From an uncultured Gammaproteobacteria bacterium (GTDB lineage: Bacteria > Patescibacteriota > Patescibacteriia > 2-01-FULL-39-33), in the NCBI GenBank assembly GCA_964558935.1, contig CAZLFP010000002.1, positions 16,356 through 80,355 of the forward strand: a stretch of DNA of 64,000 bases. Direction: 5' to 3'. How positions within the stretch are numbered: position 1 is the first letter of the stretch; the number at the start of each line of letters is the position of its first letter. Positions 2,944 through 55,366 of the stretch are shown piece after piece. The notes under the pieces are model-generated. The model ran no database searches. It had not been told where the DNA came from and saw nothing but the letters and a program-made list of their open reading frames with translations. A program made the position numbers and the translations under genes.

Positions 2944-3510
2944 TTATTGAACAAAAGCTCGTTCGTTGTTTTGTCCAATGGTAATGCCAGCACGCAATCC
3001 CAGTTGAATCGCTTTGCTCAGTAGATACTGACCTTCTTCCGATTGCAGAAAGTCCCGCATTCCCTCCAGCTTGGAACCCGAGATGCCCATTACCAGAAAG
3101 TCGACCACTTGAGTCTCTGGGATCTGTGAGAATTCCTTTTCATACTCAGCTTGAGCTTTCTGGGCTGCTGCTAGCGAGGTATGCTGTGCGACTCGAGCCC
3201 AGTAAAAGGGTTTTGAACAGATCACTTCGAATGTCAGCTTCAATTCAGTCTTTGACTGATCCGTCTCTGACTGATCCGTTAGCACACGGACATCGTGAGC
3301 ATGACAGCGCAACGGGCCAATATGGAATGTGACCAAGATACCAGCCTGAATGGCTTCTAACGGTTGGTCATCTGCATAGCTCGCGACTGAAAAAATACGG
3401 TCTTTGAGTTCATCAGGCGAGATAACTTTCACTCGCCAAGCCTGTTGTTTAGACTGGGTGGGGTCTGTCTCCAAAACCACTCCGGTTAGCATTGGTTCTG
3501 TGTTGCTCAA
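2944..3510 (-). CDS. Hypothetical protein encoded in a GC-rich segment
   Basis: 188-aa ORF. The local GC is clearly above the window background. No recognisable family. Confidence 0.4.
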   Translation of the reverse strand: MSNTEPMLTGVVLETDPTQSKQQAWRVKVISPDELKDRIFSVASYADDQPLEAIQAGILVTFHIGPLRCHAHDVRVLTDQSETDQSKTELKLTFEVICSKPFYWARVAQHTSLAAAQKAQAEYEKEFSQIPETQVVDFLVMGISGSKLEGMRDFLQSEEGQYLLSKAIQLGLRAGITIGQNNERAFVQ

Positions 3511-5098: not shown

Positions 5099-5611
5099 TT
5101 AGCCTCGCAAGAAGAACGTAGCCATTTTCCGCACCGCCCTATCTGCTGCTTCAGGATTACCTCCCCCGTTTCTGGCCATATCATAGGCCTGTTTGAGTTG
5201 AGTCAAACTCTGAGCGTTCTCAACCATTACAAAAGCTGCTTTTTTGGCAGAACCGGTGTGTGCCGGAGCATATTTTGCCAGCAGCTCGGCTTCTTCAAAG
5301 GAGCCGCAATCTTTAAGCGCTTTGCTGACCAAGATATTGAGCAGTCGGTAAGCGGCCCTTCCTTGGTGGCTGTCTACCCCGAATTCTTTCAGGGTTTGCC
5401 AGCATTGCATCATGCTTAAGGAATTGTCCATTGGAATTTGGCCGAAAGCATCTTCTATTTCAGCCCGGGACAAGCCGGTTTTGTCCATCATGACCGAGAC
5501 GTCTATCTGTGTATAGTCCAAGTCATTGATGGGTTTGGGATGGCCTTTGTACATCGTGTTCCCTCCTGTTGTCATGCCATAACCACCAGTTCTTTCAATA
5601 TATGAGAACAA
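5099..5611 (-). CDS. Hypothetical protein (GC-rich ORFan; true start uncertain)
   Basis: 170-aa ORF with elevated GC. An overlapping + strand ORF was judged less likely. Confidence 0.35.
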   Translation of the reverse strand: MFSYIERTGGYGMTTGGNTMYKGHPKPINDLDYTQIDVSVMMDKTGLSRAEIEDAFGQIPMDNSLSMMQCWQTLKEFGVDSHQGRAAYRLLNILVSKALKDCGSFEEAELLAKYAPAHTGSAKKAAFVMVENAQSLTQLKQAYDMARNGGGNPEAADRAVRKMATFFLRG

Positions 5612-14981: not shown

Positions 14982-17357
14982 ATGCTTAAAACAAAGAACA
15001 TTCTATGGTTTAAAGATGTTGGTTTAAAAGATATTGGCTTAGTCGGCGGTAAGAATGCTTCTTTGGGTGAAATGTATCAAAGATTAAAGCCATTAGGTAT
15101 TGAAGTGCCTAATGGTTTTATAGTTACAGCAGCCGCTTACCAAAAATTTATTCGACAGGCGAAATTAAAAAAAATCATTTCTAACTTGCTGAAAACCACC
15201 ACTAAGAAAAATCTAAGTGCCAGAGGTAAAAAAATACGAGGCCTAATCTTGCAAGCAGAACTGCCTCAACTTCTGCAACAAGAGATAATAACCGCTTATG
15301 AACAGCTATCTAAGACATATCAAAATGAATACACGGATGTTGCTGTCAGGTCTTCAGCCACTGCCGAAGATTTGCCAACCGCCTCTTTTGCCGGACAACA
15401 AGAATCATATTTGAATATTCAAGGACAAGAGGCTTTGCTCAAAGCCGTTAGAAGATGTTTTGCTTCCCTCTTTACAGACCGCGCCATTTCATACCGCATG
15501 GACCAGCAGTTTAAACATGACAAAGTCTTGATTTCGGTTGGTGTACAGAAAATGGTTAGGTCTGACCTGGCCAGTGCCGGAGTCATGTTTACCATTGATA
15601 CTGAATCCGGTAACGATAATGTGATTTTAATTAACGCCGCTTATGGCTTGGGAGAATACGTGGTTAAGGGTACGGTTAATCCGGATGAATATTATGTTTT
15701 TAAAGGTACTTTAAATGAGAAATATCAGCCGATAATTTCCAGACAAGTGGGAGACAAGGTTAAAAAATTGGTTTATTCGAAAGATACTAATCAGCCGACT
15801 GTTGGCAAAACGGTTAAGCCTCAAGCTAGATTAAGATATGTGTTAACAGATCAAGAAATTTTACAATTAGCGAAATGGGGTCTTAAGATTGAACAATATT
15901 ACCAAAGACCCATGGACATTGAATGGGCTAAAGATGGATTGGATCATAAACTATATATTGTTCAAGCCAGACCGGAAACAGTTGGTTCTCAAAGAGATAA
16001 AAATGTCTTGGAGGAATATCATTTAAATGCAACGGGTAAACTGATTATAACCGGTGATTCCGTAGGCATGAAGATTGGGCAAGGCCGAGCCAGGGTTATT
16101 AACAGTGTTAAGCAGTTGAAAAGTTTTAAGGCAGGCGAAGTGCTGGTTACAAAAATGACGGATCCGGATTGGGAGCCAATCATGAAGAAAGCGGCTGCGA
16201 TTGTAACGGATTCCGGAGGTAGGGTCTGTCACGCAGCTATTGTCTCACGCGAATTGGGAGTGCCGTGTGTTGTTGGTACTCAAAAAGCAACACGCCAAAT
16301 TAAGACCGGCCAACAAATTACAGTCAGCTGCGCTGAAGGTGAGATCGGTAAAATATACAACGGTCTTATTCCGTTTGAAATTAGAGAAACAAATTTAAAA
16401 AAATTACCCAAGCCCAAAACTAAGATTATGATGAACGTGGGTAATCCTTATTTGGCTCTGTCTGCCTCTTTTATACCCAACGACGGAGTGGGGCTGGCCA
16501 GAGAAGAATTCATTATTTCCAATTACATCAAAGTTCATCCTCTGGCCTTGCTTAAATATGATCAGATAAAAGATGACAAAGTTAAAAAGCAAATAGATAA
16601 GTTAACTGCCAATCATGCTCAGAAGCCGGATTTTTTTACCGATAAATTAGCGGAAGGCATCGGCATGATTGCCGCCGCCTATTATCCCAAGGATGTGATA
16701 ATTAGATTGTCAGATTTTAAATCCAATGAATATGCAAATTTAATCGGTGGTTCTCAGTTTGAACCAGATGAACCCAATCCCATGTTAGGATGGCGAGGAG
16801 CTTCTCGTTACTATTCTGACAATTACAAACAAGCCTTTATCTTGGAATGTAAAGCTCTTAAAAAGGTTAGAGATGATTTTGGTTTGGACAATATTAAAAT
16901 CATGGTACCTTTCTGTAGAACAATTGAAGAAGGTAAGAAGGTTATACAAATTTTAAAAGATAATGATCTAAAACAAGGCGTCAAAGGTTTGGAAATCTAC
17001 GTCATGTGTGAAATACCTTCCAATGTCATTTTAGCTGAAGAATTTGCTCAGATTTTCGATGGTTTTTCCATTGGCTCCAATGATTTAACCCAGTTAGCTT
17101 TGGGTGTAGACAGGGATTCAGAATTAGTGGCTGATGTGTATGATGAGAGAAACCAGGCGGTCAAAGATTTAATCTCTCAGGTGATTAAAGTTGCCAGAAA
17201 ACACAAAAAGAAAATTGGCATTTGCGGACAAGCCCCTTCGGATTTTCCAGACTTTGCTCAATTTTTAGTTTCCCAGAAGATAGACAGTATTTCCTTGGTA
17301 CCAGATACGGTGATTAAGACGACCTTAGCGGTTTTGAAGCAAGAAAAAAAGAAATAA
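14982..17357 (+). CDS. ppsA: Phosphoenolpyruvate synthase (pyruvate, water dikinase)
   Basis: 791 aa. N-terminal ATP-grasp region (GGKNASLGEM). Phospho-histidine motif GGRVCHAAIVSRELGVPCVVG. C-terminal PEP-utilising domain. Confidence 0.9.
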   Translation: MLKTKNILWFKDVGLKDIGLVGGKNASLGEMYQRLKPLGIEVPNGFIVTAAAYQKFIRQAKLKKIISNLLKTTTKKNLSARGKKIRGLILQAELPQLLQQEIITAYEQLSKTYQNEYTDVAVRSSATAEDLPTASFAGQQESYLNIQGQEALLKAVRRCFASLFTDRAISYRMDQQFKHDKVLISVGVQKMVRSDLASAGVMFTIDTESGNDNVILINAAYGLGEYVVKGTVNPDEYYVFKGTLNEKYQPIISRQVGDKVKKLVYSKDTNQPTVGKTVKPQARLRYVLTDQEILQLAKWGLKIEQYYQRPMDIEWAKDGLDHKLYIVQARPETVGSQRDKNVLEEYHLNATGKLIITGDSVGMKIGQGRARVINSVKQLKSFKAGEVLVTKMTDPDWEPIMKKAAAIVTDSGGRVCHAAIVSRELGVPCVVGTQKATRQIKTGQQITVSCAEGEIGKIYNGLIPFEIRETNLKKLPKPKTKIMMNVGNPYLALSASFIPNDGVGLAREEFIISNYIKVHPLALLKYDQIKDDKVKKQIDKLTANHAQKPDFFTDKLAEGIGMIAAAYYPKDVIIRLSDFKSNEYANLIGGSQFEPDEPNPMLGWRGASRYYSDNYKQAFILECKALKKVRDDFGLDNIKIMVPFCRTIEEGKKVIQILKDNDLKQGVKGLEIYVMCEIPSNVILAEEFAQIFDGFSIGSNDLTQLALGVDRDSELVADVYDERNQAVKDLISQVIKVARKHKKKIGICGQAPSDFPDFAQFLVSQKIDSISLVPDTVIKTTLAVLKQEKKK

Positions 17358-17370
17358 TTATTGGTTAGAG

Positions 17371-17402
17371 AGCAGCCTGCTTTTTCGCAGGCTGTTTTTT
17401 GT
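17371..17402 (+). terminator. Rho-independent terminator after ppsA
   Basis: CAGCCTGC tttttc GCAGGCTG followed by TTTTTTG. Confidence 0.75.
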
Positions 17403-17403
17403 T

Positions 17404-17436
17404 TTGACATGATTGAAAAAGTAGTGTACAATGAAA
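17404..17436 (+). promoter_or_regulatory. Promoter TTGACA, 17 nt, TACAAT driving the GC-rich small-ORF locus
   Basis: Read directly. Begins 2 nt after the ppsA terminator. Confidence 0.55.
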
Positions 17437-17469
17437 AGTACGATTTTAAAAAAGAAAGGAGGGATAAGG

Positions 17470-17523
17470 TTGGAAGAGTCGACCAAACGCGGACCGCCGA
17501 AGTACACCAGATTCCATGGTTAG
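17470..17523 (+). CDS. Candidate 17-aa peptide (MEESTKRGPPKYTRFHG) with perfect SD; TTG start
   Basis: AAAGGAGGG lies 6 nt upstream of TTG. It terminates at TAG. Could be a leader peptide or a spurious ORF. Confidence 0.2.
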   Translation: MEESTKRGPPKYTRFHG

Positions 17524-17559
17524 GCCACCAAGGATCACAACAGGAGATGTGTATGAAGG

Positions 17560-17657
17560 CGAAGATTGAGCAGTTGGAACTGGTCAAGGAGAACAAGCGG
17601 AAATCTGGTCGCGAACCTCATCGGCGGCCCAAGCATCTGATCAAGGGAGGGAAGTGA
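17560..17657 (+). CDS. Candidate small basic protein (about 32 aa, K/R-rich)
   Basis: CAGGAG SD lies 6 nt upstream of ATG. Sequence MKAKIEQLELVKENKRKSGREPHRRPKHLIKGGK. GC-rich. Confidence 0.3.
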
Positions 17658-17854
17658 TGGGTCAAAAACAGCTTTATGAGTACCGGGTCAATTGGCTGGA
17701 GAATGGACAAGTTCAGACAGCGCTGTTGGAGATGACCCAAGCCGAGGGGTTGCAGTACCGGAGGGTGCTAATCAACAAGCCCGGCGTTTCGAATGTCAGT
17801 ATCACTAGCAATGGCCCGGTTCGGCCAGAGCTGCAACCGGTCATGACTGGCTAA
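17657..17854 (+). CDS. Hypothetical 65-aa protein, translationally coupled (GTGATGG overlap)
   Basis: AAGGGAGGG SD lies 5 nt upstream of ATG. Elevated GC. No known motif. Confidence 0.45.
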   Translation: MGQKQLYEYRVNWLENGQVQTALLEMTQAEGLQYRRVLINKPGVSNVSITSNGPVRPELQPVMTG

Positions 17855-17862
17855 CACAATTA

Positions 17863-17897
17863 AGCCTGGTTATTTACTCATAATAGCCAGGCTTTTA
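17863..17897 (+). terminator. Putative terminator (7-bp stem AGCCTGG/CCAGGCT, long loop, TTTT)
   Basis: Read directly. Weaker than the other terminators in the window. Confidence 0.35.
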
Positions 17898-17933
17898 AAA
17901 TTGCTTTACAGCTCCAAGTCTATTACAATATAG

Positions 17934-18734
17934 ATGACTATGATAAATTTTTTACACACCTTTAATCCTCAGCCCATTTTTCTGGACTTGGGACCCATCA
18001 GTATTCGGTACTACGGTCTTCTAATTTGCGTGGGTTTAATCTTAGCTCTAATTTTGGTTGAACATTTGGCAAGATTAAAAAAAATTAACTTAGACGTGTA
18101 TGAATTGGGTTTTGTTTTGGCTTTATTTGGAATTTTAGGCGCCAGGTTATATGAAGTGGTGATTATTAATTGGTCATACTATGCTCAAGATTTACTAAGT
18201 ATATACAAAATATGGCAGGGTGGCTTAGCTATTCATGGCGCAGTAATTGCCGGTTTGTTGGTGCTTCTGTTTTACAGTCGTAAATATCATCTGCAATTTT
18301 GGTCTTTAACAGACATTATTGCTCCCGCTTTAGCTCTGGGTCAAGCCATTGGCAGATGGGGTAATTATTTTAACCAAGAATTGTACGGTAGACCAACTGA
18401 CGTAGCTTGGAGTATTCCAATTCAGCCGGCTAACAGATTGCCCGGTTACGAGCAGTTTATGTATTACCACCCGACTTTTTTGTATGAATCCCTTATGAAT
18501 TTAGGCCTATTTATTTTACTTTTTATACTGGTTAAAAAGGTTAAACAACCGGGTATTGTCACCTTGGTTTATTTGGCTGGGTATATGATGATACGGTTTA
18601 TAACTGAATATGTCAGGATAGATCCCACACCTCAGATTCTGGGTTTTAGATTACCTCAGTTGGCCGGTGTAATCATTTTTGGCTTTGTGTTAGGTATATA
18701 TTTATCTAATTTTAAACAAAAAAAGACTGTTTAA
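17934..18734 (+). CDS. lgt: Prolipoprotein diacylglyceryl transferase
   Basis: 266 aa, polytopic. Signature GRWGNYFNQELYG. Confidence 0.9.
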   Translation: MTMINFLHTFNPQPIFLDLGPISIRYYGLLICVGLILALILVEHLARLKKINLDVYELGFVLALFGILGARLYEVVIINWSYYAQDLLSIYKIWQGGLAIHGAVIAGLLVLLFYSRKYHLQFWSLTDIIAPALALGQAIGRWGNYFNQELYGRPTDVAWSIPIQPANRLPGYEQFMYYHPTFLYESLMNLGLFILLFILVKKVKQPGIVTLVYLAGYMMIRFITEYVRIDPTPQILGFRLPQLAGVIIFGFVLGIYLSNFKQKKTV

Positions 18735-18926: not shown

Positions 18927-19181
18927 ATGGAGATTCGCGAAGTAGGTCGCAACTACCTGGCAGTCTTTGTTCAGGTAGTGAAAGAGAACAAACAGGGCAG
19001 AAAGGTCCCGGTGCCACGCATTGGGGTCTTGCAAGATTATGCCGGCAAAGTTCGGCGCCGTGTGACCAGTCGGGATGGTCATCTGACCTTGTGGATCCAT
19101 GCCTTTCATGGTACGGAAAAGCAAGTGAGGTTGACTGTCCACAACCAACCCAACGTAACTAAGCTGGTTAGTTGGGAATAG
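18927..19181 (+). CDS. Hypothetical 84-aa basic protein (cassette gene 1)
   Basis: CAGGAG SD lies 7 nt upstream of ATG. Its stop sits immediately before the next gene's SD. An alternative-frame ORF (18896-19162) was judged spurious. Confidence 0.5.
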   Translation: MEIREVGRNYLAVFVQVVKENKQGRKVPVPRIGVLQDYAGKVRRRVTSRDGHLTLWIHAFHGTEKQVRLTVHNQPNVTKLVSWE

Positions 19182-19190
19182 GAGGTAGTA

Positions 19191-19718
19191 ATGGCTCGAA
19201 ACCAGGGAGGCCAACCAGGCCAACAAACCAAGAAGGTGACCTGCAAAGGATGCGGTCGCCTCAATGAGGACGGTAATAAGTATTGCCCGTCCTGCGGCTG
19301 TGATCCAAAGTCCGGTAAGAAAGCCGGACCGACGAAAATCGAGTTCGAGATCGAGGTTACCTATAGTGGTGACTTTGGTCGCTACAACATCCGAGTCCAG
19401 GTCACCAAGAACGGCCAGGGTGAGGATGATGGAAAGGTATGGGTCAGCGGTTTTAAGCCGACTGACAAGGTGGTTGTTGGTTCAAATACCAACACATCCG
19501 GTGGGTGTCCCACCCACCTGGAACTGGATTTGGTCAAGGGCTTTACCACCTTTGACTATGAGTTTCAGGGTGGTAAACGTTTGCTTGAGTTTGCCGCCTG
19601 CGGTAACCAGGCTAACACCTATCTCAAGCTGCGTGGTCCCAAGTATACCTCGCAGCCTAACCAACGTTTTTGGCAGCGGTTGCGTGAGAGCATCCGCCAC
19701 AAACAAGGGAGAGATTAA
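19191..19718 (+). CDS. Hypothetical protein with N-terminal zinc ribbon (CKGCG-x10-CPSCGC) and beta-rich C-terminal domain (cassette gene 2)
   Basis: Strong SD TAGGAGGT lies 4 nt upstream of ATG. 175 aa. GC about 55-60%. Confidence 0.6.
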   Translation: MARNQGGQPGQQTKKVTCKGCGRLNEDGNKYCPSCGCDPKSGKKAGPTKIEFEIEVTYSGDFGRYNIRVQVTKNGQGEDDGKVWVSGFKPTDKVVVGSNTNTSGGCPTHLELDLVKGFTTFDYEFQGGKRLLEFAACGNQANTYLKLRGPKYTSQPNQRFWQRLRESIRHKQGRD

Positions 19719-19719
19719 C

Positions 19720-20412
19720 ATGTTTCTTTACTTCCTGCTGTTTGGGCTGGCCTGTTTGGCAGCCGTATTCTGTCTGGTTTGCCAGTGTATCTGGGGAGAC
19801 AGGCAGGAACCAGACGCGAATGGCCAGATCCGGATCTACAATCCGGGCATCGAGTTCCTTGCGTCGGTTCGAACCAATAATAACTGGTGGCCACTTCTGA
19901 CCCTGGTTATTCCAACCTTCTTTTGGGGAGCTTTTCTGGTCAGTGGTTTCGGCAGTCCCCCAATCACCACCACTGTGCGGGAAGCCTACGATTGGAGTTA
20001 CCAGCAGGCACAACCGCTGGGACAATCCAGTCGATTCAAGCGCACGGTGTTGGCTGTCGTGAGTGGCGGCAACACAGAATTGGAAGAGCTGCAAACTGAT
20101 ACCCAGCAAAAAAACTGGGTAGAACAGCTTGCACCTAAACCAATTCCCATTGTCTACCGGACCTGGTTTTGGTTTAAGGCGGCTCTGTTAACCAGCTTTC
20201 TCTGGTTGATGTTGTCGCCACTCTGCTTGGTTGACGAGCTGGTGATGGCCGCTAAAGAAGCGACCAAGCGCCAGACTGCGAAAGGAAAGGCGAAGGGTAG
20301 TTCCGGAGAGGCCGGAACAAGTTCCGGCGGATATAACATGACGTGGGACTGGATCGGTGATTTCGGTTCTGCGTTCTTTGGATACTGGTTGTCGTCGCTC
20401 AGTCGGCGATAA
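19720..20412 (+). CDS. Hypothetical polytopic membrane protein (cassette gene 3)
   Basis: ATG is 1 nt after the upstream stop (taaCatg) with GGGAGAG upstream. At least three hydrophobic helices. The ORF-track N-terminal extension from 19264 overlaps gene 2 and was rejected. Confidence 0.55.
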   Translation: MFLYFLLFGLACLAAVFCLVCQCIWGDRQEPDANGQIRIYNPGIEFLASVRTNNNWWPLLTLVIPTFFWGAFLVSGFGSPPITTTVREAYDWSYQQAQPLGQSSRFKRTVLAVVSGGNTELEELQTDTQQKNWVEQLAPKPIPIVYRTWFWFKAALLTSFLWLMLSPLCLVDELVMAAKEATKRQTAKGKAKGSSGEAGTSSGGYNMTWDWIGDFGSAFFGYWLSSLSRR

Positions 20413-20428
20413 AGCAAGGAGAACAGTT

Positions 20429-21277
20429 ATGGCTGATAACGAAGTCAAATTCTCTTTCGGAGTGAAAGAGATTATCGTCACGGTGGTGACCTTGGTGTTG
20501 GTGGTTTTGTTGGTTTCCGCCACCGTGGGAAATCACAAACTGGGCTTTTTGGCGGCATCGGTCGTGTTGAGCATCGTGCTCAACAAGTATCTGTTGTCTG
20601 TCGAGAAGCAGGGTACAGCCATCGGCAGGTGGCTAAAGCAAAACAAGGTTAAGGAGTGGTGTCTGTTTGGCATCATTCTGCTGATCTTGCTCTTCCTGTT
20701 TATCAGTACGCTGGCTATCGATCCGTTTGACATGCTCAGGCAGATCGGCAGTCAGCCTAATCAAGGACAAGCTGACAACCAGCGAATCACCTTTCTCTTG
20801 CTGGCAGTCATTGTCTTCGGCTGCATAAGCTATGAGATGATTTTTGCCAACAAGCACAAGAAGAAGTTTTGGTTCTTGTGCGCAGTATTGCTGGCGTTGA
20901 TGCTGCCCACCTACAGTCTGCCGACTCAGGAGGCTGTCAAGAGTGTAAAGCAGGTCAGCAGTCATGTAAATCATTGGGTTAAGGCAGAGTCGGCTGCTTT
21001 AAAACCTAAGCCTCAAGCTCCGAGGGGGCCACGCGTGGTCTGCCGTAAGGAGGTTGAGGTAAAACCGGGTGAAAATACGACCGATGTGCTGCTGACTCAA
21101 GGCCAGCTCATTCGGCACTATTTCACACCCACAACCCCCACGATTTCATGGGCACCGGACGGAGAACCGACCAAGCAAGGTCAGCTGTTCGGTCCGGTGA
21201 GTGGTACCTACTACCACAACATCCACGTAATAGATCAAAGGTCGGGTTCGGTCATCGTCGAGGTGATTGAGCCCTAA
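20429..21277 (+). CDS. Hypothetical polytopic membrane protein with C-terminal soluble domain (cassette gene 4)
   Basis: AAGGAGA SD lies 6 nt upstream of ATG (MADNEVKF). Five predicted TM helices followed by an approximately 100-aa hydrophilic tail. Confidence 0.55.
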   Translation: MADNEVKFSFGVKEIIVTVVTLVLVVLLVSATVGNHKLGFLAASVVLSIVLNKYLLSVEKQGTAIGRWLKQNKVKEWCLFGIILLILLFLFISTLAIDPFDMLRQIGSQPNQGQADNQRITFLLLAVIVFGCISYEMIFANKHKKKFWFLCAVLLALMLPTYSLPTQEAVKSVKQVSSHVNHWVKAESAALKPKPQAPRGPRVVCRKEVEVKPGENTTDVLLTQGQLIRHYFTPTTPTISWAPDGEPTKQGQLFGPVSGTYYHNIHVIDQRSGSVIVEVIEP

Positions 21278-21283
21278 CCGCAA

Positions 21284-21334
21284 CGGCGGGAAAGTTCGTA
21301 TACTTTCCTGCCGTTTTCTATTTATCTTTTTTTT
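21284..21334 (+). terminator. Rho-independent terminator closing the cassette
   Basis: CGGCGGGAAAGT tcgtat ACTTTCCTGCCG (12-bp stem with one G:U pair) followed by a T-rich tract. Confidence 0.75.
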
Positions 21335-25203: not shown

Positions 25204-25671
25204 ATGGTACGAGGTGTGATTTGGGATTTTATGCGCACGTTGTATGATCCTGAATCAGGATCATTGACGGCCGGAGCCAGGTCGGTCTTAGAGCATTGTA
25301 AACAGCATGATTTACCCATGTGTTTACTCAGCAGTCAAGGGTCAGGCAATCGAGAACAGCAGATTCAAGCTTGCGGTATCCAACACTTCTTTGTTGATAT
25401 TCAGATAATTGCAGGTCATAAGACGGCAGAGCATTTCATCTGGGCGTCTTACGCCATGGATGTTATACCCAGAGATATTCTATTGATCGGAGATCGGGTT
25501 AAGAAAGAGATTGTCTTGGGTAACCGATTTGATGCCACAACTGTATGGTACCGCAGGGGTAAATTCGCTCAGGAAGAACCCGGCAGTCAGATTGAAAAGC
25601 CAAATTATACGATTACGGATCTCAAGCAAGTTATTGAGATTCTGTTACAGCTTACGGCCTGTCCGAGTTAG
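25204..25671 (+). CDS. HAD-like hydrolase family protein (degenerate motif I)
   Basis: N-terminal VIWDFMRTL resembles the DxDGT motif. C-terminal LLIGDRVKKEI resembles HAD motif IV. 155 aa. Confidence 0.4.
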   Translation: MVRGVIWDFMRTLYDPESGSLTAGARSVLEHCKQHDLPMCLLSSQGSGNREQQIQACGIQHFFVDIQIIAGHKTAEHFIWASYAMDVIPRDILLIGDRVKKEIVLGNRFDATTVWYRRGKFAQEEPGSQIEKPNYTITDLKQVIEILLQLTACPS

Positions 25672-28354: not shown

Positions 28355-28429
28355 GGGGGCGTAGCTCAGTTTGGTTAGAGCGCCTGCCTGTCACGCAGGA
28401 GGTCGAGGGTTCAAGTCCCTTCGTCCCCG
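28355..28429 (+). tRNA. tRNA-Asp (GUC)
   Basis: Cloverleaf read by hand. Acceptor GGGGGCG/CGTCCCC. Anticodon loop CTGTCAC. T-arm GGTTCAAGTCC. CCA not encoded. Confidence 0.88.
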
Positions 28430-28939: not shown

Positions 28940-30025
28940 TTACTTTTTGCCCAGGCGCTTCCAAGGCAACGGGCGTTGACGCTCGATGTGTTCGAGACGC
29001 CCGTAAATATCGTTCAGCTCTTGCTGAACGGTTGCTCCAGCAGCAGTCATAGCCGCTTCAGTCACCGCATTGGCTTGATCATGGACAGCCTGTTGGGCTG
29101 CCTGAGCCGATGTTGCAGCCGACTCTGCCGCAGCAGTCGAGGCGGCCAGCGAAGAGAAAGCTGTTCTCAAAGCCTTATCTTCGAAGTCGTTATTCTTGTC
29201 ATTGCAGAGCAAGTCCACCTCGCTCTCTCCATAGACTCCAGCCACTGCGGCCTCTTCGATAACCCTCACTCTGCCCATAATCTTGTCCAGCTCAGTCCGG
29301 GAGCGGGACTTATGGGTGTTCAAATCCGTTTGTACGGATTTGATGGACCTGGCATTGGCCTGGATGTCGGTGTAGAGGTCTGAGTAAACCTTGTCGATAC
29401 TGTCCAGGCTTCTAATGCCTGCTTGTAAGACATAGGTTTGGACCTCGGTAAATTTTTCCGTGTTAGCCAGGTCATTGATTTCCAGGTCAGTGGCTTCCGG
29501 ATAGGCAGCCTTGGCAAGAATCTTCTTGTCTTGCTTCAACTCACCCTGGACATCTAGCAGGTTCGAGTCCAGAACCTGGATCTGGTCTGCCGCATCCGTG
29601 AGTGTGATGGGGCACTCTTCCTGTTCGAAGTTCCAGAATTCTTTGAACTTGCCGCTGATATTGGCGGCCAGTTCACCGGCATCCTGGGCTTCTCTCGTCG
29701 CCGCCCTGGCCGTCTGGTTCGCTCGGTAGGTGAACCAAGCGGACACGAGAAGTCCGGCGATCAGCATGCACATTAGGACCCAGGCCAGACCAAGACTCAC
29801 TCCCAGCCTGTTGATCCGCCAAGACTCATTCGGTTGCGGTTGGGTATCATCTACCGCGTCGGCCGTCTTGTTGAGCTCAGAGATGTCTTTCTCTGTCTGC
29901 TTAATGGCCGTTGACACGGCCATCATTTCTTCCTGCTCTTCATCTGTCGGCTTCTCGATTGACTCGAGAGCCGCCAACTGCCCTTTCAGGCGTTGTAGAT
30001 CTGCCTGCAGTTCATCCAGGTTCAT
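28940..30025 (-). CDS. Hypothetical coiled-coil membrane protein encoded in a GC-rich (about 55%) segment
   Basis: 361 aa. N-terminal coiled coil. Single TM (LGVSLGLAWVLMCMLIAGLLVSAWF). Long extracytoplasmic coiled-coil and Ala-rich tail. Confidence 0.55.
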   Translation of the reverse strand: MNLDELQADLQRLKGQLAALESIEKPTDEEQEEMMAVSTAIKQTEKDISELNKTADAVDDTQPQPNESWRINRLGVSLGLAWVLMCMLIAGLLVSAWFTYRANQTARAATREAQDAGELAANISGKFKEFWNFEQEECPITLTDAADQIQVLDSNLLDVQGELKQDKKILAKAAYPEATDLEINDLANTEKFTEVQTYVLQAGIRSLDSIDKVYSDLYTDIQANARSIKSVQTDLNTHKSRSRTELDKIMGRVRVIEEAAVAGVYGESEVDLLCNDKNNDFEDKALRTAFSSLAASTAAAESAATSAQAAQQAVHDQANAVTEAAMTAAGATVQQELNDIYGRLEHIERQRPLPWKRLGKK

Positions 30026-36209: not shown

Positions 36210-36620
36210 TAGCTGAATTATTAATCGGGTGGAGATGAGGAGTAATGAACTCCTGTCTGGCAATAAGCGAAGTAAATCAGTTGACAAGTTTTTGCTCTTT
36301 GAATGTTTTAAGCTACAACCTAACTAAAGAGCGAGATAGTCATAGCCGAAGTCTGTAAGTTTAAATAACTTACCCAGACTAAGCAAGTTACCGAGCCTAA
36401 GAATATGACACCGCTACCAACCATATAGGCCTAAGCTGGGCGATGGCTGTCAGCTTATTTAAGCAACAGCTGGTGCCAAAGCTAAACCGCTAAAAGCAGT
36501 TTTGACTCTAGCTAATAAGTTTTTTGCACTTATCTGGTGATGGTTTTTGACCTGGTTGCCAACAAACCGGACTTGCTGATTTACCTGTTATTCCCATCGA
36601 ATCATAACATCCCCAAGATA
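36210..36620 (-). promoter_or_regulatory. Long (about 400-nt), moderately GC-rich 5' UTR of the infC-rpmI-rplT operon; candidate L20-leader-type autoregulatory RNA
   Basis: No ORF in the segment. Position equivalent to the L20 leader of Firmicutes. Not verified by motif. Confidence 0.25.
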
Positions 36621-43985: not shown

Positions 43986-44642
43986 TTAGCTTTGAGGCTG
44001 TTTAGTCTTCTTTTCCTCCAGGAATTGGCGTCCCTTGCCCACATCCGTGTTGACCGGAGTGTTTGTCTGACACAGCGGGCACTCATCTGCCGACCAGCTC
44101 TTGATCTCTTGCTGAACCAAGCTGACAATCTTGGGCGGCTCGCCAACTTGTTCGTAGCCGGTTACATCCCGCTCCCAGAGTAGAGCCAGACCGGTAATGA
44201 TACCACCATGCTGTCTGCCCAGTTCCACCACTTGCTTGGCAGATTTGCCGGTAGTCATGATATCTTCCACCACCAGGATTCTCTGGTCTTTGATCCACTG
44301 GTCGTAACCGCGACGGATTTCAAAGCCACCTTCCTGATTCTTCTCAGCGTAGATCGCTTTGACTTGTCGTCCCGTAATCAGGGACAGATGCAGGGCAACA
44401 TACTGAGCCAGAATAATGCCACCCAAGGCCGGTCCCAAAACCGTGTTAATCTTGTCAGTGGCAAATTCCCAAGCCAGCAGACTGCACATGCCTGAGATAA
44501 CTCCGGGATCGGTGTAGACCGCATCCTTGTTAACATAGGTGTCACTGTGACGACCTGAGTTTAGGACAAAGTGACCTTGTCGCAAAGCTCCGGCTCGCTT
44601 GAAAAGATCCTTGATCTGTTCATGTGCTTGATGTCCCGGCAT
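43986..44642 (-). CDS. pyrE: Orotate phosphoribosyltransferase with C-terminal extension
   Basis: PRPP-binding motif ILVVEDIMTTGKS. 218 aa. GC-rich coding relative to the background. Confidence 0.85.
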   Translation of the reverse strand: MPGHQAHEQIKDLFKRAGALRQGHFVLNSGRHSDTYVNKDAVYTDPGVISGMCSLLAWEFATDKINTVLGPALGGIILAQYVALHLSLITGRQVKAIYAEKNQEGGFEIRRGYDQWIKDQRILVVEDIMTTGKSAKQVVELGRQHGGIITGLALLWERDVTGYEQVGEPPKIVSLVQQEIKSWSADECPLCQTNTPVNTDVGKGRQFLEEKKTKQPQS

Positions 44643-44644
44643 GA

Positions 44645-45382
44645 TTATTCTCCTCGTCCTGCCTGTGAGATTTCTTCGGCAATGCGTTTGGCCGCTTCCA
44701 CCGGTGAACCCATTTCCTCCGGCGGTTGGGTAATGGGTCGTCCAATGACCAAGTAATCTGCTCCGTCTTCAATCGCTTGCTCGGGAGTGGTGATTCTCTG
44801 CTGGTCATTGGAAGCTGCCCACTTGGGACGGATGCCCGGGGTAATGAATTCCAATTCCTGCAATTCCAGTTGCTGTCTAAGGAGTTTCAGTTCCTGCGGT
44901 GAACAGATAATGCCGTCACAACAGGCCGAGTCAGCATCGCGTGCCAACTGTAAAACCTTGGCCTTGCTGGGCGCTCCGAATATGAGGTGAGCCTGGTTTT
45001 CTTCCAGTGAAGTCAGGACCGTAACAGCCCAGATAAAGGTTGATTCTTGGAGCAACTTTGCGGTCTCGCTCGCTTGAACTGCTTGTTGCATAGCTTTGAT
45101 ACCGCAGGACGCATGGACATTTAAGGCATAGACGCCCAAATCAATTGCAGCTTGGGTAGCCGCTTTAACCGTATTGGGAATGTCACAGAACTTGCCGTCA
45201 TAGAAAACCTTGCCTCCGAGCTGGTGAACAGTTTCAACAACTTGAGGCGCTCCAAATTTGGTAATGGCTTCCAAGCCGATCTTGAACAGCCCGACCTGGT
45301 CATGTAATTGTTCGACCAGCTTTTTGAGCTGATCCAAATCGCTGACATCCAGAGCTACAATAATTCTGTCTTTGGGTTGCAT
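44645..45382 (-). CDS. pyrF: Orotidine-5'-phosphate decarboxylase
   Basis: DRIIVALDV ... LFKIGLE N-terminus, catalytic Asp/Lys region. 245 aa. GC-rich. Confidence 0.85.
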   Translation of the reverse strand: MQPKDRIIVALDVSDLDQLKKLVEQLHDQVGLFKIGLEAITKFGAPQVVETVHQLGGKVFYDGKFCDIPNTVKAATQAAIDLGVYALNVHASCGIKAMQQAVQASETAKLLQESTFIWAVTVLTSLEENQAHLIFGAPSKAKVLQLARDADSACCDGIICSPQELKLLRQQLELQELEFITPGIRPKWAASNDQQRITTPEQAIEDGADYLVIGRPITQPPEEMGSPVEAAKRIAEEISQAGRGE

Positions 45383-45823: not shown

Positions 45824-45905
45824 TGCCGAAGGAGGGAGTCGAACCCTCACACCCGAAGGTACACGATTTTGAGTCGTGCGTGTCTACCAGTTCCACCACT
45901 TCGGC
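45824..45905 (-). tRNA. tRNA-Leu (CAA), long variable arm
   Basis: The reverse complement reads GCCGAAGTGGTGGAACTGGTAGACACGCACGACTCAAAATCGTG ... GGTTCGACTCC ... CTTCGGCA. Anticodon CAA. Confidence 0.85.
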
Positions 45906-45911
45906 TAATGT

Positions 45912-45986
<75 letters not shown>

Positions 45987-45994
45987 CTGTCTTG

Positions 45995-46067
45995 TTGCGG
46001 GGGCCGGACTCGAACCGGCGACCTGCGGGTTATGGGCCCGCCGAGCTGCCAACTGCTCTACCCCGCG
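45995..46067 (-). tRNA. Initiator tRNA-fMet (CAU)
   Basis: The reverse complement reads CGCGGGGTAGAGCAGTTGGCAGCTCGGCGGGCCCATAACCCGCAGGTCGCCGGTTCGAGTCCGGCCCCCGCAA. C1:A72 mismatch. GGG/CCC anticodon stem. Confidence 0.9.
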
Positions 46068-54343: not shown

Positions 54344-54634
54344 CTAAGATTTGGGTTTGTCTTTAAATTCGGCATCAGAGAATCGGTCATGACAGGATAA
54401 ACAGCGTTTGACGGAAATGTACTTATCCGTCGTGTCTGGAACTTGCAGTTCCAGAATCCTGGCAAATTTTTTTAATCCCTCAGGATCTGTACCTCTGGTT
54501 CTACCGCAGCCGGTACAAAAAATGGCAATACCCTGAGACAGCTCTTCAGCTTCGTTTAGCTTTCTGAGCACCGGTTTATGATTACCGGTCGGTTTACTCT
54601 TGACTGCTTGGCCAAGTAATTCTGCTTTGTTCAT
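54344..54634 (-). CDS. Hypothetical zinc-ribbon protein (C-x2-C ... C-x2-H)
   Basis: IFCTGCG ... CLSCH motifs. 96 aa. The hairpin GGAACGAG-tgg-CTCGTTCC immediately downstream (54322-54342) serves as a terminator. Confidence 0.45.
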   Translation of the reverse strand: MNKAELLGQAVKSKPTGNHKPVLRKLNEAEELSQGIAIFCTGCGRTRGTDPEGLKKFARILELQVPDTTDKYISVKRCLSCHDRFSDAEFKDKPKS

Positions 54635-55294: not shown

Positions 55295-55366
55295 GGGGCT
55301 ATCGTCTAGTGGTTAGGACACCAGGTTTTCATCCTGGTAACCGGGGTTCGATTCCCCGTGGCCCTA
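55295..55366 (+). tRNA. tRNA-Glu (UUC)
   Basis: GGGGCTATCGTCTAGTGGTTAGGACACCAGGTTTTCATCCTGG ... GGTTCGATTCC ... TGGCCCTA. Anticodon TTC. Followed by the terminator ACAACCA aaca TGGTTGT TTTTTTT. Confidence 0.88.

Follow-up and report, generated by a model that had tools for sequence, protein, structure and literature searches.

What is encoded by the short GC-rich segment that separates ppsA from lgt in a Patescibacterium genome, and why does it begin with an open reading frame (ORF) of 17 codons? The segment (17404-17896) was examined within a 64,000-nt stretch of DNA, the whole of which is called the window (contig CAZLFP010000002.1 of assembly GCA_964558935.1, positions 16,356 to 80,355 of the forward strand). 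Unless stated otherwise, positions are those of the window, and all features of the unit are on the + strand. Direct reading of the sequence and of the ORF list identified three ORFs (ORF1, ORF2 and ORF3: 17, 34 and 65 codons) in three frames, each led by a Shine-Dalgarno (SD) sequence, with a promoter and a terminator hairpin at the ends. The segment, bounded by the ppsA terminator and lgt, is a genuine and self-contained mini-operon and an independent transcription unit. Sequence divergence, codon statistics and a structural model indicate that ORF2 and ORF3 most likely encode genuine small proteins, which evolve fast and belong to no known family. For ORF1 we lean towards the following reading, which draws on sequence comparison and computed folding: it would be an ultrashort, signal-peptide-less arrest leader with an R-x-P-P motif, controlling the two small-protein genes.

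The R-x-P-P mini-ORF at the head of the unit

ORF1 (17470-17523; TTG start, TAG stop) encodes the 17-amino-acid (aa) peptide MEESTKRGPPKYTRFHG. Its SD, GAAAGGAGGG (17454-17463, of which AAAGGAGGG is 17455-17463), contains a GGAGG core at 17458-17462, lies 7 nt ahead of the TTG and was predicted by folding to be unpaired (P = 0.81). The codons CGC GGA CCG CCG (17488-17499) specify Arg7-Gly8-Pro9-Pro10, the predicted arrest module.

Every locus of the comparison set was scanned, and in six of them a TTG-started, SD-led mini-ORF with R-x-P-P (x = G, A or P) comes first after the promoter. These leaders are as follows: the window (start at 17470, MEESTK-RGPP-KYTRFHG); L081, a related metagenome contig (1627, MRVSAK-RGPP-LN); L001, which equals L084 (2549, MPLNKIA-RPPP-RYIQ; MPLNKIARPPPRYIQ); L042 (5638, MPRV-RPPP-EV..., 33 codons, coupled to the small gene by AUGA); L002 (5549, MREVQE-RPPP-EV; MREVQERPPPEV); and L117, which equals L118 (5377, MKPLGE-RAPP-FGIPINWED; MKPLGERAPPFGIPINWED). 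Apart from that of L042, the leaders have 12-19 codons. The motif is found within residues 5-11 and ends 2-9 residues before the stop codon in five of the six, and an SD-led small gene either overlaps the leader or lies 29-131 nt 3' of it.

The residues flanking R-x-P-P are not conserved among the six leaders. The Arg is present in all of them (codons CGC, CGG, AGG, AGA, AGA and CGC) and the Pro codons are CCG, CCU and CCA. Since the Arg is specified by both CGN and AGR codons, selection appears to act on the peptide and not on the RNA. Among 1653 SD-led short ORFs, sampled from both strands of all AT-rich loci in the set, R[GAPS]PP was found in 8, all from the six loci (three are nested starts in L002), and the other 1645 were without it. 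When an SD was not required, the frequency was 0.05% among 56,085 short ORFs. R-x-P-P was absent from the 18,252 residues of the long ORFs of the window, where about one occurrence was expected, a difference that is not significant alone. One further candidate in a ppsA-lgt gap, MPRHLRGPPQL of L021, was discarded: it had no SD and was read by eye as antisense to a probable reverse-strand gene. A leader-peptide regulatory unit had been among the options offered by the original prediction, and for ORF1 the recurrence of an SD-led mini-ORF with R-x-P-P in six loci supports this option.

In L081, ORF1 has 12 codons (MRVSAKRGPPLN) and the SD GAAAGGAGGG is identical to that of the window. Codons 4-10 (S-x-K-R-G-P-P) differ between the two loci by two synonymous third-position changes and by a Thr to Ala replacement at codon 5. 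A small 6-bp hairpin (GGUUGG/UCGACC, 17468-17484; -5.8 kcal/mol, z = -2.7) encloses the ORF1 TTG, for which P(unpaired) is 0.02, and recurs in L081 (1625-1641; -7.0 kcal/mol, z = -3.3), where a U-A pair is replaced by U-G and a G-U pair by A-U. Together with the TTG start shared by all the leaders, this hairpin would keep leader initiation low.

Predicted folding and comparison with known leaders

A larger hairpin, the predicted attenuator (17495-17561; -19.9 kcal/mol, z = -2.0), is formed by pairing of 17495-17517 with 17542-17561, i.e. of ORF1 codons 9-16 with the SD of ORF2 (SD2), the ORF2 AUG and ORF2 codons 2-3. SD2 (AGGAG, 17542-17546) lies 6 nt before the ORF2 ATG and is paired with 17512-17517 in the minimum-free-energy (MFE) structure. 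To represent a stalled ribosome, a 28-nt footprint was forced to be unpaired and the ensemble cost of opening the ORF2 initiation region was measured. The cost fell from 8.8 to 2.4 kcal/mol in the window. When the footprint was slid over all codons of window ORF1, the minimum cost was found exactly with Pro9 in the peptidyl (P) site; ribosomes at the start codon (9.2 kcal/mol) or at the stop codon (8.3 kcal/mol) gave no unmasking. The corresponding cost of opening the downstream initiation region fell from 9.1 to 4.0 kcal/mol in L001 and from 15.6 to 9.2 kcal/mol in L117, and the effect was weak in L081 (8.9 to 6.5 kcal/mol).

The proposed mechanism would run as follows. Transcription would begin about 7 nt 3' of the TACAAT box, and the strong SD would bring ribosomes to the 17-codon ORF1. 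With Met-Glu-Glu-Ser-Thr-Lys-Arg-Gly-Pro-tRNA in the P site and Pro-tRNA in the aminoacyl (A) site, R-G-P-P would block peptide-bond formation, so that the ribosome would stall on a 9-residue nascent chain, its P site at the Pro9 codon (17494-17496) and its A site at the Pro10 codon (17497-17499); this geometry is taken from the literature. The arrested ribosome would cover about 17482-17509 and keep open the 5' arm of the hairpin that pairs with SD2 and the AUG. The ORF2 initiation site would thereby be opened, a step for which the folding computations give mixed support over the loci. ORF2 (34 aa, basic) would then be translated, ORF3 would follow by UGAUG coupling, and the terminal hairpin would end the transcript ahead of the separately promoted lgt.

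The stall is proposed by analogy with the RAPP and RGPP modules, which are versatile arrest modules, with RGPP giving the most robust arrest (Fujiwara et al., 2025, PMC12992588). In the RAPP module the Arg is irreplaceable, and the Ala can be replaced fully by Gly and partly or largely by Pro; as a criterion of the type, position 2 is partly permissive for S, D or P (PMC12992588). In this type of stall the third residue is in the P site, the fourth (Pro) is in the A site, and elongation factor P (EF-P) gives no relief (PMC12992588). RGPP is also the most under-represented tetrapeptide in many phyla (PMC12992588). In bacterial proteomes no tetrapeptide is avoided more strongly than RAPP/RGPP, which has so far been known as the active end of long, exported monitoring substrates. 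Natural RAPP-type peptides combine this arrest module with an N-terminal regulator module (Morici et al., 2024, PMC10951233); the same report notes that selections from random libraries recovered RxPP with x = G, A, S or P, and that the minimal motif was enough. The natural peptides have about 100-200 aa and are mostly exported or membrane proteins (SecM, ApdA, ApdP); CruR has 145 aa (PMC9426467).

ORF1 and its counterparts share the core motif and the invariant Arg with the RAPP/RGPP-type peptides (SecM RAGP, ApdA and ApdP RAPP, ApcA RAPG, CruR RAPP and the RAPP/RGPP upstream ORFs of Streptomyces). As in these systems, the upstream ORF is co-oriented with the following gene or genes and carries the motif close to its C-terminus. 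The melting of a ribosome-binding-site (RBS) helix by the stalled ribosome, predicted for some of the loci, would follow the secM-secA paradigm. Most of the known peptides carry a signal peptide or transmembrane segment, or the ligand-binding motif of CruR, and these features release the arrest by force or by folding. The ORF1 class, by contrast, is limited to 12-19 codons (33 codons in L042) and lacks an export signal. The genes behind it encode orphan small proteins of the cytosol, in a Patescibacterium host. Neither a regulator module nor release through export or folding was recognised in the ORF1 class, in which 12-19 residues leave no room for a hydrophobic segment or signal peptide. In the papers on RAPP and RGPP (PMC12992588, PMC9426467 and PMC10951233), no mention of Patescibacteria leaders was found beyond a proteome-frequency panel. 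The proteome survey in PMC12992588 covered proteins under 300 aa from GTDB annotations, and such proteome-based surveys would miss leaders of this kind because the ORFs are too short to be annotated.

The architecture of the window leader is nearly identical to that of Salmonella mgtP, an SD-led ORF of 17 codons with Pro at codons 10-12, in which pausing reshapes the leader so that the downstream RBS becomes free (PMC3641672); mgtP- and mgtL-type leaders are controlled by EF-P (PMC5299641, PMC6460261). ORF1 shares with them the length of about 17 codons, an SD, consecutive Pro residues around codons 9-12 (PP at codons 9-10 in the window) and alternative stem-loops, one of which hides the RBS and start of the next gene, here the hairpin 17495-17561 that spans ORF1 codons 9-16 and the RBS of ORF2. 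ORF1 might therefore be a Pro-codon sensor of the MgtP/MgtL type, pausing when Pro-tRNA(Pro) or EF-P activity is limiting, with the leader remodelled and ORF2 and ORF3 switched on. The PPP of three of the six leaders favours this explanation, and the footprint-folding results of the window fit it equally well. However, a conserved Arg two residues before the Pro pair, specified by both codon families, would have no role in such a sensor, and the published RAPP and RGPP arrests are unrelieved by EF-P (PMC12992588). The mgt leaders also differ from ORF1 in that they sense Pro-tRNA and EF-P, act mostly by transcription attenuation, have no conserved Arg at position -2 and show no sequence kinship to ORF1. 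Between ORF1 and ORF2 there is no evident attenuator terminator. We consider a Pro-codon sensor unlikely.

Very short nascent chains are a feature of drug-sensing leader peptides. In the ErmCL and ErmBL class, nascent chains of about 9-10 residues arrest the ribosome in a leader ORF and a hairpin rearrangement frees the downstream RBS; this arrest needs a bound antibiotic and other peptide motifs. Nothing at ORF1 hints at such a small-molecule cofactor.

Several observations weigh against the arrest-leader reading of ORF1. The Arg is preceded by 4-7 residues, whereas natural RAPP motifs are C-terminal in proteins of about 100-200 aa and arrest is modulated by their N-terminal neighbours; on a chain of 9 residues, peptidyl-tRNA drop-off might occur instead of arrest. 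The footprint had no effect on the opening cost in L002 (10.2 to 10.2 kcal/mol) or in L042 (4.9 to 4.9 kcal/mol) and, because the L042 leader overlaps its small gene by AUGA, stalling there would lower downstream translation. In the window, the hairpin stands out only modestly (z = -2.0), and in the ensemble SD2 is open to about one half. Neither a signal peptide nor any other evident means of releasing the stall is present, so that the regulation might be constitutive. Common descent links the six loci; with window/L081 and L002/L042 counted as pairs, about four lineages are independent. The Pro codons (CCNCC) are complementary to GGAGG, so that some selection may act at the RNA level. Finally, L082, L003, L163, L166, L167 and L169 carry the SD-like sequence GAAAGGAGG but no leader ORF, and only about half of the units have the leader at all; since related units exist without it, the leader is dispensable for the locus.

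The last of these points bears on a further explanation, in which ORF1 and its SD merely load ribosomes at the 5' end or stabilise the mRNA, the mini-ORF is incidental, the small proteins are expressed constitutively and R-x-P-P has no regulatory role. Stabilisers resembling an SD exist at mRNA 5' ends in Gram-positive bacteria. The retention of GAAAGGAGG in units without a leader ORF agrees with this explanation and, as most genes here have no SD, a strong 5' SD may serve general expression or stability. It leaves unexplained why six diverged leaders share R-x-P-P, the TTG start and the position of the motif, and why the motif is restricted to them among the SD-led short ORFs of the sample. 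We regard it as quite unlikely, and retain the arrest leader as the preferred reading of ORF1.

The transcription unit and its two probable small-protein genes

The upstream boundary of the unit is the intrinsic terminator of ppsA (17364-17400; hairpin CAGCCTGC/GCAGGCTG and T-run), which follows the end of ppsA at 17357 and is adjoined by the -35 box of the unit. The sigma-70-type promoter (17404-17432) consists of TTGACA (17404-17409), a 17-nt spacer and TACAAT (17427-17432), as had been proposed. It matches the consensus at 11 of 12 positions and was the top promoter-like site in a scan of 1.8 kb (16800-18600). Transcription is predicted to start at about 17438-17440, about 7 nt 3' of TACAAT and slightly upstream of the 5' end at about 17443 given by the original prediction. 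An in-frame ATG at 17431 sits within the -10 box and is for that reason not expected in the transcript. The promoter hexamers are the same in L081, where the spacer has diverged, and the same layout is found in L001, L082, L003 and L117.

ORF2 (17553-17657; ATG to TGA) encodes the Lys/Arg-rich 34-aa peptide MKAKIEQLELVKENKRKSGREPHRRPKHLIKGGK, slightly longer than the estimate of about 32 aa, and has a second possible in-frame ATG at 17547. Its 3' end contains the SD of ORF3, AAGGGAGGG (SD3, 17643-17651; GGAGG at 17646), 5 nt from the ORF3 ATG. ORF3 (17657-17854; ATG to TAA, 65 aa) has an alternative GTG start at 17654. Its start overlaps the stop codon of ORF2 as UGAUG, through which ORF3 is predicted to be translationally coupled to ORF2. 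The strong SD of each of the three ORFs, and the lengths of 17 and 65 aa for ORF1 and ORF3, agree with what had been proposed. The unit closes with a terminator-like hairpin (17862-17896; stem-loop 17862-17894, 13 bp, 7-nt loop; -18.5 kcal/mol, z = -5.3). A hairpin and T-run had been described here, but the T-run amounts to only four U, and for that reason the hairpin was not called by the terminator scan.

At 0.53, the GC content of 17470-17860 exceeds that of the window (0.41), of ppsA (0.39) and of lgt (0.37), consistent with the GC of about 50% in an AT-rich background that had been described. When the sequence was shuffled with its dinucleotides preserved, at least three events of SD, start codon and ORF (at least 10 codons) per 461 nt were obtained in 18 of 2000 shuffles. 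Because SDs are uncommon in this genome, where the majority of long ORFs have none, the SD signal is sharper than this figure suggests.

Exhaustive HMMER searches of 1.84 billion representative proteins returned a sole convincing relative of ORF3: P0002 (73 aa; 37% identity over residues 4-60, E = 9e-6). Its gene occupies the syntenic position in L081. This contig ends with the 3' part of ppsA, nearly identical to the ppsA of the window over its final stretch, and has the same order of elements: terminator, TTGACA...TACAAT, GAAAGGAGGG, 7 nt, TTG, ORF1, ORF2, the ORF3 homologue (73 codons), a hairpin with U-run and the start of lgt. A hairpin with U-run is found at the equivalent place in L081, L082, L003 and L001, and the sequences are all different. 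The ORF2 of L081 has 34 codons in the same place, with 16 of 34 residues identical to the window ORF2, and its junction with ORF3 is a TTGA stop/start overlap.

Between the window and L081, the proportions of nonsynonymous and synonymous differences (pN and pS) were 0.36 and 0.63 for ORF2 and 0.42 and 0.71 for ORF3. Identity at codon positions 1/2/3 was 0.56/0.68/0.50 for ORF2 and 0.48/0.66/0.40 for ORF3. The substitutions track the codon positions in two frames and switch from one frame to the other exactly at the UGAUG junction. A codon model was trained on the other GC-rich, SD-led genes of the window: for both ORFs the own frame was the top one of six, with GC1 > GC2 < GC3 (0.59/0.32/0.71 in ORF2). 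ORF3 is a protein already called in NCBI (P0001). Its single-sequence structural model was too poor for use, and the AlphaFold2 model from the two-sequence alignment was taken instead: it has a beta-beta-alpha-beta fold with a predicted local distance difference test (pLDDT) of 89 and a predicted template modelling score (pTM) of 0.66. Against the PDB, Foldseek found a non-significant likeness to the C-terminal domain of NikR and to ACT-like folds (best E = 0.46, template modelling score (TM) 0.57). Conservation in L081, coding-like substitutions, codon statistics and the ORF3 model thus favour the small-protein genes that had been suggested for ORF2 and ORF3; in particular, the proposed check of frame conservation came out on the side of coding.

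The same comparison bears on the view that the GC-rich segment is a structured non-coding RNA with accidental ORFs. In its favour are the GC-rich composition within an AT-rich genome and the somewhat low MFE of the whole transcript (z = -2.2 on the + strand, -2.75 on the - strand). However, the segment had no Rfam match at the gathering score or at E <= 10, and in Rfam 15 nothing within 17300-18000 scored above 22.5 bits (best E = 1.3); the gathering-level Rfam matches of the window, a transfer-messenger RNA (tmRNA) and tRNAs only, lie outside the segment. RNAalifold on the window and L081 gave scattered short helices (-40 kcal/mol over 505 columns), so that the compensatory pairs across the ORFs, raised beforehand as possible grounds for refuting the coding reading, did not materialise and a structured RNA was unsupported. 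With substitutions that follow codon positions in two frames and a confident protein fold for ORF3, a structured RNA is hardly credible.

There is equally little to commend the idea that the three ORFs are the frameshifted debris of one larger, horizontally acquired GC-rich gene. The three consecutive frames, the foreign-looking composition and the other GC-rich islands of the window would fit it, but L081 has retained the layout, lengths and junctions of the three ORFs while their amino-acid sequences diverged by about 40-60%. Each ORF is preceded by an SD of its own, and no larger protein matches any frame.

ORF2 and ORF3, as two overlapping small genes of which one is very basic, with their own promoter and terminator, could also be a toxin-antitoxin or similar addiction pair to which ORF1 is irrelevant. 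This had been another option of the original prediction and we now regard it as very improbable. The three peptides and their relatives had no match in Pfam, PHROGs, PADLOC, NCBIfam or PDB sequence profiles, and no type II family was recognised. The pair is known from the window and L081 only, ORF2 being found nowhere else, and the positional counterparts in most relatives are single small genes. The position is stably syntenic, not mobile. No further copies came from a first metagenome scan with ORF3 or from collections of phages, plasmids and viruses. A word-indexed search of 5.8 billion proteins returned ORF3 itself only, and blastn and tblastx found no similarity between the segment and the rest of the window or 80 lgt loci. 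Two candidates were set aside: a resemblance of ORF2 to a degenerate ribosomal protein L36 was dropped when the PDB profile search returned no ribosomal protein, and P0003, a 1118-aa repeat protein matching ORF3 at E = 6e-5 over 5 stretches, was judged by eye to be repeat-inflated and was not used.

The genomic slot beside lgt and the wider window

The unit had been described as having no obvious relationship to its neighbours, a statement that does not hold: with 0-3000 nt allowed between the two genes, lgt adjoins ppsA in 25 loci of the sample (two of them duplicates), the gaps being 46-2000 nt, and many of the ppsA-lgt or pyk-lgt gaps are filled by such a unit. In gaps of about 400-1100 nt there is usually a promoter-to-terminator unit, whose small gene has 45-130 codons and a strong SD. 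Comparable units follow ppsA or pyk in many Patescibacteria, nearly all of them directly upstream of lgt, and most contain one small gene only.

A common slot family (alignment A6) was found in L082, L003, L163, L167, L169, L001, L042 and L117, and as a tandem duplicate in L166. Its members resemble the window unit in their genomic slot, their own promoter and terminator, their strong SD, their length of 45-74 aa and, sometimes, an RxPP leader. They differ in that they have no similarity to ORF3 and P0002 (hhalign probability 0.1 with both 3 and 10 sequences). Homology of ORF3 and P0002 with the slot family was accordingly not claimed, and the family members are called positional counterparts, not homologues, because the similarity is undetectable. 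In L166 (2042-2434) the slot protein is tandemly doubled in one 130-aa ORF, with two beta-beta-alpha units that each end in D-P-P-L-P. In L003, the interval 5350-5520, between a small ferredoxin-like ORF and the slot unit, is GC-rich and contains two strong hairpins, ccctggcttttaagccagggg and ccccgctctttagagcggggg.

GAAAGGAGG is found about 25-30 nt 3' of the -10 box in nearly all units, with or without a leader ORF. It was seen with no ORF behind it in L082 (2434-2443), L003 (about 5623), L163 (about 1690), L166 and L167 (about 2135), where it is an SD-like 5' element, possibly a ribosome standby site or an mRNA stabiliser.

By its lgt gene, the window belongs to Patescibacteria. Among GTDB representatives, the closest lgt is 53% identical and belongs to Buchananbacteria-like metagenome-assembled genomes. 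A -10-like box lies about 4-10 nt before the lgt ATG (window 17924-17940, L082 2790-2805, L003 5990-6007), and because it is so close to the ATG the lgt mRNA is probably leaderless. The corresponding -35 region would share sequence with the U-run at the terminator of the small unit. The ATG at 17940 (MINFLH) fits the N-terminus of the relatives (MNFLH) better than the ATG at 17934. The unit always abuts the lgt promoter, and a link to lipoprotein maturation is conceivable.

Elsewhere in the window, most long AT-rich ORFs have no SD, and in many a TATAAT-like box precedes the ATG by only 5-10 nt (example starts: 1586, 12746, 17934/17940, 21354, 22226, 28486 and 46179), which suggests widespread leaderless mRNAs in this Patescibacterium. 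Perfect AGGAGG SDs accompany GC-richer genes (0.44-0.54) at 2944-3510(-), 19191-19718(+), 25204-25671(+), 28940-30025(-), 43986-44642(-), 44645-45382(-) and 54344-54634(-). These are mostly orphans, plus a phosphoribosyltransferase and orotidine monophosphate decarboxylase (pyrF); the class is distinct in composition and initiation signal and may have been horizontally acquired. Downstream of lgt, a GC-rich block (19000-21300, about 0.52) carries long overlapping ORFs at 19191-19718, 19264-20412 and 20357-21277, the first with a weak zinc-ribbon match; in relatives, the genes after lgt are TrbC/type IV secretion system pilin-like and double-zinc-ribbon. The window also contains the tmRNA gene and five tRNA genes, at 36227-36614(-), 28355-28429(+), 45824-46067(-) and 55295-55366(+), with three tRNAs clustered at 45824-46067.

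The analysis flags a conserved but fast-evolving small-protein locus beside lgt. Beyond this locus, it is possible, although doubtful, that Patescibacteria hold an unrecognised class of ultrashort, export-independent R-x-P-P leaders (7-10-residue chain, TTG start, strong SD) that gate fast-evolving small proteins adjacent to lgt. As there could be no pulling on so short a peptide, read-out or release of the stall would need a factor acting in trans (EF-P or an ATP-binding cassette F (ABCF) ATPase), Pro-tRNA supply or ribosome rescue. Such a leader would report on the condition of the translation machinery, in organisms whose ribosomes are reduced and unusual. With its 17 codons and its predicted RBS-unmasking hairpin, ORF1 would be a very compact natural test case. 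If the arrest-leader reading is true, the R-x-P-P module can work, or at least be selected, essentially alone after 4-7 residues, and arrest-peptide regulation extends to the Candidate Phyla Radiation.

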